Source of the DNA: a virus
Length of the DNA: 5,760 nucleotides
Virus record (IMG/VR): IMGVR_UViG_3300045988_116360
Span: 1-5,760 of that record
Strand: one strand, 5' to 3'
The notes under the pieces were generated by a model. It was not told where the DNA came from. It made no database searches and saw only the letters and a program-made list of their open reading frames with translations. Positions 1 through 5,760 of this stretch are shown here, piece after piece (the stretch's first letter is position 1; each line of letters opens with the position of its first letter). A program made the position numbers and the translations under genes.

Positions 1-119
1 AGTATTGCGAGGATATTATAACGCAAGGTTTTTGTGTTGTTAATGGGCAAAAATTTAAAATTCCTGATTATTATCTTAAACTTTTTGAACGTAAAAATCC
101 TGTTTGGTGTCAAATTTAT
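1..119. repeat. Terminal direct repeat: 1-119 is identical to 5642-5760. This is the overlap of a circular 5641-bp genome that was linearised with redundancy.
   Basis: Aligned base by base: c111 matches c5752 and t119 matches t5760, an offset of exactly 5641. The reading frame of the Rep ORF continues across the junction. Confidence 0.95.
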
Positions 120-239
120 AAAGAACAAAGACGCGCTAACGCTTCATCTGACGTTGATATATATAGACTACAAGCCAAAGAAAAAATCATGATGAAAAAG
201 CAGGAACGTTTTACTCGAGAACTGGATAATTTAGGCTGA
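1..239 (+). CDS. VP4: Replication initiation protein (rolling-circle HUH endonuclease, gokushovirus VP4 / phiX gpA-like), C-terminal part. It continues from 4951..5760 across the circular junction. The first full codon starts at nt 3 and the TGA stop is at 237-239. The joined protein is 309 aa.
   Basis: Nt 3-239 translate without a stop (YCEDIITQGFCVVNGQKFKIPDYYLKLF...RELDNLG*). They are in frame with 4951..5760 through the 5641-bp periodicity. Confidence 0.9.
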   Translation, partial: YCEDIITQGFCVVNGQKFKIPDYYLKLFERKNPVWCQIYKEQRRANASSDVDIYRLQAKEKIMMKKQERFTRELDNLG

Positions 240-1779: not shown

Positions 1780-1826
1780 GTCACCTGTACCAGTTACCGT
1801 ACTTGATAGTAACTGGTACAGGTGAC
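1780..1826. repeat. Perfect 18-bp inverted repeat forming a hairpin: GTCACCTGTACCAGTTAC (1780-1797), loop cgtACTTGATA (1798-1808), GTAACTGGTACAGGTGAC (1809-1826). It lies in the 283-nt VP3-VP1 intergenic region and is a candidate replication origin.
   Basis: The right arm is the exact reverse complement of the left arm. The loop contains ACTTGATA followed by gTAAC, compared with the phiX174 ori CAACTTGATATTAATAAC. Confidence 0.8.
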
Positions 1827-1840
1827 ACAAAATCTCATCT

Positions 1841-1954: not shown

Positions 1955-3712
1955 ATGGCCAAAAATATACGCGTCAATCAAAGTCATTTCGCGCTTTTGC
2001 CGCAGGCTAATATCAAGCGCTCGGTATTTGACCGTTCATTCGTCTATAAAACGACTTTTGACGAAGGTAAGTTAATTCCCTACTTTGTCGATGAAGTTTT
2101 GCCCGGCGATACTTTTACATTGAATCCGGTCGAGTTTTGTCGTTTGTCTACGCCGGTAGTGCCATTTATGGATAATTTGTATATTGAATCATTTTTCTTC
2201 TTTGTCCCTTGTCGTCTTGTATGGGACAACTGGGTACGAATGTGTGGCGAACAAGAAAATCCCGAGGACAGCACAGATTTTATTGTTCCGACAATTTCTT
2301 ATGACGGTAACACTCCTGCTTCTCTTTTTGATTATTTTGGCCTTGGTTCTAAGAGCTTCGGTTCTGCTGCTGTTTCTCAGATGAATGTTAATGCTCTTCC
2401 ATTTCGCGCTTATTGGCTCGTTTGGAATGAGTGGTTTCGTGACGAAAATCTGCAGAAGTCTGTTAAAGTTTCTAAAGGTGATACTAACTCGGTCGTTGAA
2501 GCTATGGGTAGCGGCACTGTTAACCCTAATTACGGTTTTCCTGACGGCGTTACTCGTTGGTATCAATGTGCTCCGCGTGGTAAACGCCACGATTATTTCA
2601 CATCCTGCTTGCCTTGGCCGCAAAAAGGCCCAGCCGTTGATTTGCCATTAGGGCAAACTGCTGATATTGTCTCGACTGGCGAGCCTTTTACTTTGAAATG
2701 GTCTGGTGGTCAACAGGATATTCATGGCGGGGGTGCTCATTACGTTTGGTCTTCTTCTGAGGATACATATCTTACTCCATCTTATTACAAAACTGTTGCT
2801 AATCAGCCTTCTAGTGCTTCTCCTCCTTCTACTGCTGTTACTGATTCTTTAACTTCTTCAACTGGTTCTCGTACTAATGGTTCTGATGTCACTTATAAGT
2901 CTAATGTAGCTTCCTTCGGTTCCGTAACTGGTTTGCAGGCTAATCTTTCTTCTGCTACATCTATAACTATTAACTCTCTGCGTCAAGCCTTTATGCTCCA
3001 GCGTTATTACGAGATTGATGCGCGCGGCGGTACCCGTTATACGGAAAAATTGCAGGCTCACTTTGGCGTAACTAATCCTGATGCACGTTTGCAGCGTCCT
3101 GAGTTCTTAGGCTCTCACAGCGCTATGATGAGCATTAATCCTATTGCTCAGACTTCTAGCACTAACGATACTAGTCCGCAAGGCAACTTGGCTGCCTATG
3201 GCGTTCATGGTCAGCGTTATCATGCTTTCACAAAATCCTTTAGCGAATTTGGTTACGTTATTGGCTTAATTAACGTTCGTGCTGACCTTACGTATCAGCA
3301 AGGCATACATCGTATGTGGACGCGTTCTGACATGTTTGACTTCTATTGGCCATCCTTTGCCCATCTTGGAGAGCAGGTTGTACTTAATAAAGAGATTTAC
3401 GCTCAGGGTACTGCTGATGATGACAAAGTTTTTGGCTATCAGGAGCGTTATGCTGAGTATCGTTATAAGCCGTCTCTGATTACTGGTCAGTTCCGTAGCA
3501 CTTATAAAGAGACTTTGGATGTTTGGCACTTAAGCCAAAAATTTGATTCTTTGCCCACTTTATCTGACCAATTTATTCAAGACCATCCGCCTATCAGTCG
3601 TGTCGTTGCTGTTCCGACTTATCCGCATTTTCTCTTAGATGTTAAGTTTAATTTAAAATGTATCAGGCCTATGCCCATGTTTGGCACGCCCGGTATGATG
3701 GGTCATTTTTGA
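1955..3712 (+). CDS. VP1: Major capsid protein (gokushovirus VP1 / phiX F-like jelly-roll), 585 aa from ATG 1955. An in-frame GTG at 1946 would give 588 aa. It contains a Ser/Thr-rich low-complexity insertion at about nt 2746-2985.
   Basis: GAGGTG RBS (1943-1948) lies 6 nt before ATG 1955. The size and conserved block INSLRQAFMLQRYYEIDARGGTRYTEKLQAHFGV are typical of microvirus major capsid proteins. This is the largest ORF, as expected for VP1. Confidence 0.93.
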   Translation: MAKNIRVNQSHFALLPQANIKRSVFDRSFVYKTTFDEGKLIPYFVDEVLPGDTFTLNPVEFCRLSTPVVPFMDNLYIESFFFFVPCRLVWDNWVRMCGEQENPEDSTDFIVPTISYDGNTPASLFDYFGLGSKSFGSAAVSQMNVNALPFRAYWLVWNEWFRDENLQKSVKVSKGDTNSVVEAMGSGTVNPNYGFPDGVTRWYQCAPRGKRHDYFTSCLPWPQKGPAVDLPLGQTADIVSTGEPFTLKWSGGQQDIHGGGAHYVWSSSEDTYLTPSYYKTVANQPSSASPPSTAVTDSLTSSTGSRTNGSDVTYKSNVASFGSVTGLQANLSSATSITINSLRQAFMLQRYYEIDARGGTRYTEKLQAHFGVTNPDARLQRPEFLGSHSAMMSINPIAQTSSTNDTSPQGNLAAYGVHGQRYHAFTKSFSEFGYVIGLINVRADLTYQQGIHRMWTRSDMFDFYWPSFAHLGEQVVLNKEIYAQGTADDDKVFGYQERYAEYRYKPSLITGQFRSTYKETLDVWHLSQKFDSLPTLSDQFIQDHPPISRVVAVPTYPHFLLDVKFNLKCIRPMPMFGTPGMMGHF

Positions 3713-3727
3713 GCGAGGTGATTTTTT

Positions 3728-4504
3728 ATGGGACTTGGTTGGCTTGGTTCTGCCGTTGGCGGTCTCATTGGCGGCTCACTCTCTAATTCCGCATCTCGTC
3801 ATGCGATGGATAGTCAGATTGCTACTAATCGTTATGATTATCAGCATCGTTATCAATGGGCGATGCAGGATATGCAAAAAGCTGGCCTTAATCCTATTCT
3901 TGCAGCTACGCAAGGTATTGCCGGCACTGTTAATGGTGCTTCCGCCCTCGGCGCGTCTTATAATTCTATTGGCGGCGATTTAGCTGCAGGAGCTGGAGCT
4001 GATGCGGCTTCTAATTCTGCTAAAGCGCAGCAAAAGCACGCTGATGTAGCTGATAAATTGTCCTTTGGCCAAATAAAGCAGATGGATAGTCAAATTGCTC
4101 TTAATGCTTCATCTGCTAAAAAGCTTGATGAGGACACATTAAGTACTCATTTGGCTAATCGTCTTTTTAACGATAGTTATAATTATCAGCTCGATATTTA
4201 CCGGCAAAATCTTGAGAATTCTAAAAAGCAAGGCGCTTATATTGATTCGCAGATTGCTAATAATCAGTTTATGCGTGATGTTGTAATGCCTGCTCAGGCT
4301 TTTAGCTACACTGCCCAAGGCAATGCTTCCAATTCTGCCGCTGATTATAACGGTAAATTAGGTCTTTTGGCTGATAGAGATTATGAGTACAAAGGTTATA
4401 GAAATAAGGATTATGGTACTTATGGTAACGCTGATGATGGCGGTTTATTTTCTACTCTTGGCCGTTATGGCTCGCGTTTGGTCAATAGTATTTTTGGTAA
4501 TTAA
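3728..4504 (+). CDS. VP2: Minor capsid / DNA pilot protein (gokushovirus VP2, phiX H analogue), 258 aa. The N-terminus is Gly-rich and there are three internal [MI]DSQIAxN repeats.
   Basis: GAGGTG RBS (3715-3720) lies 7 nt before ATG 3728. MGLGWLGSAVGGLIGG and the motif QKAGLNPILAA resemble remembered VP2/H pilot proteins. The position directly after VP1 fits. Confidence 0.8.
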   Translation: MGLGWLGSAVGGLIGGSLSNSASRHAMDSQIATNRYDYQHRYQWAMQDMQKAGLNPILAATQGIAGTVNGASALGASYNSIGGDLAAGAGADAASNSAKAQQKHADVADKLSFGQIKQMDSQIALNASSAKKLDEDTLSTHLANRLFNDSYNYQLDIYRQNLENSKKQGAYIDSQIANNQFMRDVVMPAQAFSYTAQGNASNSAADYNGKLGLLADRDYEYKGYRNKDYGTYGNADDGGLFSTLGRYGSRLVNSIFGN

Positions 4505-4519
4505 TAAGGAGTTGATTTT

Positions 4520-4783
4520 ATGTCTAACAAAACTACTGCTATTCTTACTTTCCTCGTCTCTACTGTTATCCCTTTTATCCAAGAGGTAGTCGATTTTATT
4601 TCTATGTTTCGGACTGGGACTTATGACAAATCAGGCTCGGATAGCTTGCGCTCTATCAGCCTTGCTATGCAAGACGACCTTGTCAATATGCAAAAAAGAG
4701 AGGTAAAAACTGAAGATTCCTTTCGCTCCGTTGCAAGTACGGAAGAAAAACCATACTCCAGATTTTTGGGAAAAACTCATTAA
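4520..4783 (+). CDS. Hypothetical 87-aa protein with a single N-terminal transmembrane helix (TTAILTFLVSTVIPFI, with an internal Pro) and a hydrophilic, acidic C-terminal domain. Candidate membrane, lysis or exclusion protein.
   Basis: Strong AAGGAG RBS (4506-4511) lies 8 nt before ATG 4520. Codon usage matches the phage. Without it there would be a 318-nt non-coding gap in an otherwise compact genome. Confidence 0.55.
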   Translation: MSNKTTAILTFLVSTVIPFIQEVVDFISMFRTGTYDKSGSDSLRSISLAMQDDLVNMQKREVKTEDSFRSVASTEEKPYSRFLGKTH

Positions 4784-4950: not shown

Positions 4951-5760
4951 ATGACTTGCCTACATCCGTTGTTGGCGTCTCCATACGCTCTGCCTAACGA
5001 AAATGGCAAAATAGAGTACAAAGTATGGGGCGCAGTAGAAAAATTCGATACAGAGACTCTGAGGCGCTTTAAAACGGGTTTTCACGCTATTCCTATTCCT
5101 TGCGGTCAGTGTCTTGGCTGTCGCTTGGATAAAGCTAACGAATGGGCTATCCGCTGCGTTCATGAGGCTAAGCTGTATCGCCGTAACTGTTTTATTACTC
5201 TCACTTACAATGATGATAATTTACCAGATGACAATTCCCTTCATCGGGAGCATCTGCAGCTTTTTTTGAAAAGATTGCGCAGGAATTTAGATTATGTTAA
5301 AAGTATCAAAATACGTTTTTTGGCTTGCGGTGAGTACGGGTCTCTTAATATGCGCCCTCATTATCATATACTTGTTTTCGGTTGGTTTCCTTCTGATGTT
5401 CGCAAGCTCTCGGCGCTAACTAGTGGCTATAACCTCTTTCGTTCTCCTCTGCTTGAGAGACTTTGGCCGTATGGCTTTAATACTGTTGGAGCTGTAACTT
5501 TTGAGAGTGCGCGATATGTTGCTAAGTATAGCCTCAAAAAGCAGACTGGTCAAAATGCTGCTATGTACGACCTTCTCGGGATTAAGCCTGAGTTTGTCAG
5601 CTGTTCTCTTAAGCCCGGTATTGGAGCTGATTTTTTTAATCAGTATTGCGAGGATATTATAACGCAAGGTTTTTGTGTTGTTAATGGGCAAAAATTTAAA
5701 ATTCCTGATTATTATCTTAAACTTTTTGAACGTAAAAATCCTGTTTGGTGTCAAATTTAT
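4951..5760 (+). CDS. VP4: Replication initiation protein VP4 (HUH rolling-circle endonuclease), N-terminal 270 codons. The ORF is open to the window end and continues at 1..239. RCR motifs: CFITLTY (motif 1), PHYHILVF (HxH motif 2) and ARYVAKY (catalytic Tyr motif 3, identical to the phiX gpA YVAKY).
   Basis: AAGGAA (4936-4941) precedes ATG 4951. It translates to MTCLHPLL...IPCGQCLGCRL...GEYGSLNMRPHYHILVFGWF...ARYVAKYSLKKQ with no stop up to 5760. The ORF track missed it because no stop lies inside the window. Confidence 0.92.
   Translation, partial: MTCLHPLLASPYALPNENGKIEYKVWGAVEKFDTETLRRFKTGFHAIPIPCGQCLGCRLDKANEWAIRCVHEAKLYRRNCFITLTYNDDNLPDDNSLHREHLQLFLKRLRRNLDYVKSIKIRFLACGEYGSLNMRPHYHILVFGWFPSDVRKLSALTSGYNLFRSPLLERLWPYGFNTVGAVTFESARYVAKYSLKKQTGQNAAMYDLLGIKPEFVSCSLKPGIGADFFNQYCEDIITQGFCVVNGQKFKIPDYYLKLFERKNPVWCQIY

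Follow-up and report, generated by a model that had tools for sequence, protein, structure and literature searches.

A hairpin in a non-coding stretch of this gokushovirus genome raises the question of where the phage starts to copy its DNA. A preliminary description had noted a phiX174-like core in the loop and had left two readings side by side, a (+)-strand origin and a complementary-strand origin. From comparisons of sequence we suggest that the hairpin and about 10 following bases are probably a viral-strand rolling-circle origin, with a predicted Rep nick TACTTG^AT in the loop. As supposed in that description, no defined gokushovirus origin was found in the searchable full-text literature, the older subscription papers on Chp1, Chp2, SpV4 and phiMH2K being beyond reach. 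The main microvirus diversity surveys and the EC6098 papers, searched for hairpin, origin and intergenic content, mention neither the hairpin nor the motif.

The hairpin and its genomic setting

The window, by which we mean the whole stretch of 5,760 nt analysed, holds a complete circular gokushovirus genome of 5,641 nt as a circularly closed assembly, in which the first 119 nt recur exactly at the end (1-119 equals 5642-5760). The nearest GenBank record shows about 68% identity across 40% of the genome. Every gene lies on the + strand:

4951 to 239, + strand: Rep/VP4, spanning the circle junction (PF23343, E = 7e-23)
4951..5760, + strand: first 270 codons of Rep/VP4; the ORF runs on across the circle junction
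1..239, + strand: 3' end of Rep, the stop codon ending at 239; bases 1-119 duplicate 5642-5760
315-671, + strand: ORF of 118 aa without Pfam match
712-978, + strand: ORF5/VP5
1219-1662, + strand: VP3 scaffold (PF09675)
1955-3712, + strand: VP1 capsid (PF02305)
3728-4504, + strand: VP2
4520-4783, + strand: ORF of 87 aa without Pfam match

Rep/VP4, the presumed trans-acting nickase, carries the HUH motif as HYH at residues 137-139 (5359-5367) and the two-tyrosine motif YVAKY at residues 189-193 (5515-5529). The positions of the two ORFs without Pfam match, 315-671 and 4520-4783, have counterparts called as genes in the close relatives L111-L114. Directly after the Rep stop there is a perfect sigma-70 consensus (TTGACA-17-TATAAT preceded by TG, 258-286), and the gap between ORF5 and VP3 holds a terminator-like hairpin (13 pairs, T-run) and an imperfect inverted repeat of 23 nt (1067-1095 and 1106-1182).

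The structure that had been described at 1780-1826 was recovered exactly: a perfect 18-bp inverted repeat around an 11-nt loop, inside the VP3-VP1 spacer (292 nt), the genome's longest intergenic region as noted earlier. Its parts are as follows:

1780..1797, + strand: hairpin 5' arm GTCACCTGTACCAGTTAC, 100% complementary to the 3' arm; among relatives the sequence varies and the pairing is constant
1798..1808, + strand: hairpin loop CGTACTTGATA, 11 nt, holding the core TACTTGAT at 1800-1807
1809..1826, + strand: hairpin 3' arm GTAACTGGTACAGGTGAC, which doubles as part of the spacer (GTAACTG...) of the origin-like block
1821..1830, + strand: conserved box GGTGACACAA, family consensus rGTGACACC, overlapping the stem base and reaching 3' beyond the stem
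1799..1830, + strand: origin-like block that runs colinear with the phiX174 viral-strand origin (30 nt), with a 1-nt insertion (A1808) in the window's clade

This is the longest hairpin of the window genome. As single-stranded DNA it folds with -19.9 kcal/mol (z = -7.85 against shuffles), it appears in both the MFE and the centroid structure of the entire intergenic region, and a perfect 18-bp stem with a loop of 3-20 nt is expected by chance about 1e-6 times in 5.6 kb by our estimate. The core TACTTGAT occurs once in the window, and so does GGTGACAC (1821-1828; 0.03 expected). A covariance model of the family element scored 52.5 bits on the + strand of the window versus 16.9 bits on the - strand. 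The ungapped weight matrix gave only -3.3 bits on the window because its clade carries the A1808 insertion; after removal of A1808, a matrix trained without this clade gave 36.1 bits for the site and -4.2 for the next best in the genome.

Two further core-like sites in the window were set aside. A possible second copy of the motif, TACTTGTT at 5369-5376 within the HUH-coding stretch of rep, has neither hairpin nor box and scores low with the matrix. A small hairpin at 1841-1857 (CCGTT GATATAG AACGG) is found in the closest relatives only and is absent in L001-L016. Its loop region GTTGATATAGAAC is core-like, with CTGTTGATGTAGAACGC as the counterpart in L111-L113, and it may be a vestigial duplicate or a product of chance. 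A third hairpin, GTAAATAG...CTATTTAC at 1890-1935, is followed by a T-rich run just 5' of the VP1 ribosome-binding site; its stem shows compensatory changes (GTATTCAG/CTGAATAC in L111; CGAAAA/TTTTCG versus CAAAAA/TTTTTG in L001-L016), and the whole resembles a leaky terminator or a structured 5' UTR.

Conservation and covariation of the element

The preliminary description had named conservation of the loop, along with compensatory stem changes, as something to look for in related genomes. Both were found, the loop staying near-invariant while Rep identity falls from 94% to about 25%. The stem and TACTTGATAGTAAC...GGTGACACAAAATC are constant in four closer relatives (Rep 81-94%), whose flanks drift, the lone stem exception being an A-to-G change (wobble) in the 5' arm of L114. 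All 16 IMG/VR relatives with VP1 about 70% identical have the hairpin about 170 nt 5' of VP1, and three of them (L006, L013 and L010) show compensatory stem changes.

To a set of 80 gokushoviruses retrieved by Rep similarity alone (36-45% identity) we applied a leave-one-out weight matrix, which found a single site above 20 bits in 70 genomes, the runner-up usually scoring below 10 bits. Most of the other 10 hold a hairpin with 1-2-nt indels or have a contig broken at the site. Overall, the module is single-copy in about 78 of the 80. The covariance model likewise gave one element per genome unit. Stem sequences in this set range from closely similar to unrelated, and nearly all genomes show TACTTGAT in the loop.

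The element is also present in cultured and named phages: in Chp2 at 2904-2941, where it contains the sole CTTGAT of the genome, in SpV4 at 512-544 and in phiMH2K at 3296-3335, while Chp1 probably carries a variant at 2750-2777. It occurs in the distant microviruses PQ006876 and OL617015, with Rep about 25-30% identical. In a third record, OL617022 (2966-3040), the block CTTCTTGTTG...GGTGACACC lies just 3' of a 14-bp hairpin, outside its loop, and L073 (3221-3255) has the usual stem and box with an unrelated loop, TCCCAGTTCATCT. No convincing element was seen in the 6.3-kb microviruses KX513871 and MZ089801. A search of GenBank with the 46-nt consensus matched 250 phage records at 251 places, one per record except one; the organism names listed are those of microviruses, with 11 further names grouped in the tally. 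Among the matches listed, 35 of 40 had no annotated feature under the 46-nt match. As the motif is common to phages of Chlamydia, Spiroplasma, Bdellovibrio and E. coli, it is more likely to be recognised by a phage protein than by host priming enzymes.

An E. coli gokushovirus prophage likewise has the element between VP3 and VP1. This prophage (L103), at 2677-6993 of the E. coli E9 chromosome (NZ_CP104500) from poultry, sits between fimbrial genes and hipBA with the hairpin at 4295-4331. Since the hairpin is carried by such a prophage, E. coli phages of this kind offer a tractable test system. Some gokushoviruses are reported to integrate at dif by way of a phage dif motif (10.1101/743518), and a recombination site, either a dif-like site for XerCD integration or a lysogeny attachment site, could thus be imagined. 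We regard this as hardly credible: roughly 1.6 kb or more separates the hairpin from each end of the E. coli prophage that contains it, and its arms of 7-20 bp with a spacer of 5-19 nt do not resemble the 28-bp 11-6-11 dif. Further, most gokushoviruses lack the dif motif according to the same source, and almost all have the hairpin.

For the position of the element the preliminary description needs to be corrected. It had been equated with the F-G spacer of phiX174, whereas across the family the element comes after VP3 and, as a rule, before Rep rather than VP1: it follows VP3 in 88 of 91 genomes, and the gene after it is Rep in 62 genomes and VP1 in 29, the latter including the window's clade.

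This place after VP3, together with a stem that could form in RNA too, might fit an RNA element, either a terminator or a hairpin protecting the VP3 message at its 3' end or the VP1 or Rep message at its 5' end. As an intrinsic terminator the hairpin was rejected, its stem being followed by ACAAAATCTC, without a T-run, and the terminator scan did not list it. Rfam gave no significant match, the only hit being Entero_OriR (1715-1849) with 25.2 bits against a gathering score of 80 (E = 0.068). The pattern of changes in the stem also speaks against RNA. In a MAFFT alignment of 68 elements, 10 of 10 core pairs have changed on both sides, with 110 double-change cells versus 39±5 in shuffled alignments, and 80% of cells are paired as against 28-38% with the partners slid. 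The corresponding values for a covariance-model alignment of 99 distinct rows, which leans towards structure because it was fitted to structure, are 10 of 10 pairs, 173 versus 46±6 double-change cells, and 90% versus 25-35% paired. Wobble pairs make up about 1% of stem cells and one-sided changes are very rare. This near-absence of wobble points to Watson-Crick pairing at the DNA level on both strands, as in cruciform extrusion, rather than to an RNA helix. In addition, genomes with an inverted module (see below) keep loop and box on the strand opposite the genes, where a transcript would hold the complement, and the window has its separate hairpin with a T-rich tail at 1890-1935. An RNA role therefore seems very improbable to us.

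The anatomy of the family element was derived from 89 distinct elements anchored on CTTG. It consists of a hairpin of variable sequence, with the arm and spacer lengths given above, followed by a conserved block of about 30 nt, yTACTTGAT-GTAACTGTGCT-aGGTGACACC. Only the 5' arm is free to vary, and its variation keeps the pairing with the GTAACTG... part. Within the core TACTTGAT the positions are 91-100% conserved, apart from the first T at 87%, and the C, T, G, A and T positions reach 96-100%. The box containing GTGAC holds about 1-1.4 bits per position, and in the window we consider GGTGACACAA a candidate for the 'key' sequence bound by Rep. The loop and the downstream sequence are under selection, and the flanks are saturated.

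Likeness to known origins and the proposed cleavage by Rep

The phiX174 origin had been quoted correctly (J02482 4299-4328, CAACTTGATATTAATAACACTATAGACCAC, with rep_origin annotated at 4306), and the phiX174-type core in the loop stood up to comparison: GTACTTGATA matches CAACTTG^ATA at 8 of 10 positions, within a conserved block of about 30 nt that is colinear with the phiX174 origin. Without gaps, the gokushovirus consensus and the phiX174 origin share 15 of 30 positions, including the ACTTGAT that spans the G^A nick and the GAC of positions 25-27, where the phiX174 GACCAC sits at the same offset as the GAC-containing box of gokushoviruses. Among 10,772 positions scored with the gokushovirus weight matrix, the true phiX174 origin comes 3rd; the similarity downstream of the nick core is modest (rank 229 of 10,772, p ~0.02). 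The catalytic motif YVAKY of the window Rep is, as noted earlier, identical to that of phiX174 protein A (343-347), the two proteins align with a blastp E of 3e-4, and their HUH motifs read PHYH and LHFH, respectively. The homologous Rep, ACTTGAT at the cut site, the ~30-nt block and its single copy per genome are features shared with the Bullavirinae phiX174, G4 and alpha3.

The architecture differs from that of this only proven relative. The phiX174 origin lies inside gene A, is unstructured by computation and has a tripartite layout in which an AT-rich spacer parts the cut site from the key (binding) sequence, whereas the element of the window is intergenic and its spacer is a stem arm that is not AT-rich. 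The phiX174 origin depends on melting driven by supercoiling. The plasmid pC194 carries the identical core CTTGATA, and in the double-strand origins of the pC194/pUB110 family the nick falls within CTTG^ATA. The Rep of these plasmids is, like phiX174 protein A, a member of the HUH superfamily and acts with one tyrosine and a glutamate; the flanking sequences differ. The origins of circoviruses, geminiviruses, nanoviruses and the plasmids pT181 and pMV158 follow the same plan, a nick motif in a stem-loop with a Rep-binding sequence beside the stem. Their nick motifs are unrelated (e.g. TAGTATT^AC) and their Reps are of other families, so this is a likeness of mechanism, not of descent. We consider it likely that the gokushovirus element is a hairpin-presented, intergenic version of the phiX174/pC194-type nick origin, with the nick predicted between G1805 and A1806 from homology with phiX174 CAACTTG^ATA.

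All steps of the mechanism that we propose are modelled on phiX174 and on hairpin-origin systems. Rep (VP4) would recognise the conserved GTAAC...GGTGACAC on the supercoiled replicative form, and the inverted repeat would extrude or melt so that TACTTGAT becomes single-stranded in the loop. One tyrosine of YVAKY would then cut between G1805 and A1806 and stay on the 5' end, leaving a 3'-OH to prime displacement synthesis. After one round the hairpin regenerated on the displaced strand would be cut and re-joined by the second tyrosine, releasing the packaged circle. If Rep cuts the TACTTGAT strand in this way, that strand would therefore be the packaged one.

A complementary-strand (single-strand) origin, at which host RNA polymerase, primase or PriA starts the second strand while Rep nicks elsewhere, is the strongest competing reading. 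Such a role is known for the primosome site of phiX174, the primase site of G4 and the sso elements of rolling-circle plasmids, and the phiX174 and G4 sites, like plasmid ssoA and ssoU, are likewise hairpins in non-coding DNA of the packaged strand. A strong hairpin of single-stranded DNA in a non-coding region would suit this role. Plasmid ssoA elements also bear a conserved loop motif; the CS-6-like motif of ssoA (TAGCGT) was not found in the loop CGTACTTGATA. The conserved hairpins near rep in roodoodoo- and reekeekeeviruses, which show compensatory changes, have tentatively been read as negative-strand initiation or primosome sites (PMC9865509). No nick-motif argument was made for them there, and we liken them to the present element by description, not by sequence. 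What makes this reading unlikely in our view is the loop, which is near-invariant over phages of very different bacterial phyla, unexpected for a signal to host enzymes, and which equals the cleavage site of the homologous phiX174 Rep. The complementary-strand origins named above are recognised by host enzymes, are not kept across host phyla and are without a Rep cleavage core. No other conserved non-coding element was seen.

For the viral-strand reading, a precise candidate, some 45 nt long and with TACTTG^AT as the predicted cut site, is now at hand for gokushoviruses, which are among the most abundant single-stranded-DNA phages of guts, oceans and soils. Relatives of EC6098, a phage tractable in E. 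coli, carry the element, and the question can thus be put directly to the test. If it is the origin, it would join the phiX174/pC194 nick core to a hairpin-presented form, and as a marker it could help to orient and circularly permute microvirus genomes from metagenomes.

Orientation of the module and strand composition

In 5 of the first 92 genomes the entire module, box included, was found on the strand opposite all genes, and precisely these five proved to have an A-rich, T-poor coding strand at four-fold degenerate sites. In a larger sample of 268 genomes, partly enriched for relatives of such inverted genomes, the module is inverted relative to all genes in 32, belonging to 11 lineages (L034, L037, L040 at 2259-2289 on the - strand, L087, L096, L116-L127, L141, L145, L146, L167, L178, L195, L215, L243-L247, L250, L273 and L298). 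The composition of the coding strand at four-fold sites differs between the two classes:

Module on the gene strand, 236 genomes: mean coding-strand A-T skew -0.32
Module inverted, 32 genomes in 11 lineages: mean coding-strand A-T skew +0.58

The difference gives p = 7e-18 in a Mann-Whitney test that ignores kinship between genomes, and each of the 11 inverted lineages lies above the mean of its five nearest normal-orientation relatives (sign test, p = 5e-4). GC skew at the same sites differs weakly (p = 0.03). The rule has exceptions, as 24 of the 236 normal-orientation genomes are A-rich and 3-4 inverted genomes are weakly skewed. Some lineages among the former have an A- and C-rich coding strand (L282, L283, L286, L290, L269, L264, L143, L081 and L230); the weakly skewed inverted genomes include L195, L167 and L215.

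Statistically, then, whichever way the module points, the strand bearing the motif is the T-rich one. Single-stranded-DNA phages are known for T-rich viral strands, and the simplest interpretation would have phages of both classes package the TACTTGAT strand, which suggests that those with an inverted module package the antisense strand. As the genes kept their orientation while the module flipped, the element that defines the strand must be non-coding and invertible, and the module is the only conserved candidate for it. Presence on the T-rich, presumably packaged strand would be required of a complementary-strand origin and of a packaging signal too, and the location of the element there in both classes is to that extent in line with either of them. 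With a complementary-strand origin, however, each of 11 independent inversions would need an unseen second nick site to flip simultaneously while the genes did not. Between the two readings first proposed, the (+)-strand origin is thus favoured, as judged from the ~30-nt block colinear with phiX174 and from an orientation that tracks strand composition. A purely complementary-strand origin is less likely, and the data are compatible with a module that serves as both.

A third reading would make the module a DNA site for another phage protein, such as a packaging or condensation signal for a VP8/J-like protein or a switch from replication to packaging for a VP5/C-like protein. The conserved box GTGACACC adjoins the stem and forms part of a second small inverted repeat in several genomes, and the element lies on the presumably packaged strand, all of which such a site would accommodate. 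It would leave unexplained both why the loop equals the nick core CTTGAT of phiX174 and pC194 and why strand composition flips with the module. Packaging in phiX174 is not known to need any sequence beyond the origin. We find this reading improbable, somewhat more so than a complementary-strand origin.

Taking the viral-strand origin further, we speculate, with slightly less than even confidence, that the module is the ancestral viral-strand origin of gokushoviruses and some distant microviruses, that its orientation sets which strand is packaged, that the 11 flipped lineages are antisense and that phiX174 is derived. The module as origin would predict that some lineages package the non-coding strand. 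Were the wider proposal true, the flipped lineages would be the first 'negative-sense' Microviridae, packaging a strand antisense to all genes, and the hairpin-less origin of phiX174 within a gene would be a derived state.

Smaller repeats accompany the module in some genomes. The GTGAC box is often one half of a second short inverted repeat 3' of the hairpin (L017, L034, L040, L051, L081 and L282), for example GACTGAC-ACC-GTCAGTC or GAGTGAC-CCCT-GTCACTC, and in the window's clade its partner is GTCAC at the foot of the main stem. In many aquatic gokushoviruses (L035, L036, L038, L046, L050 and others) another small hairpin, absent from the window and with a loop of the GAATA type (e.g. GGCTGAATAAGCC), lies immediately 5' of the main hairpin, about 5-20 nt upstream.
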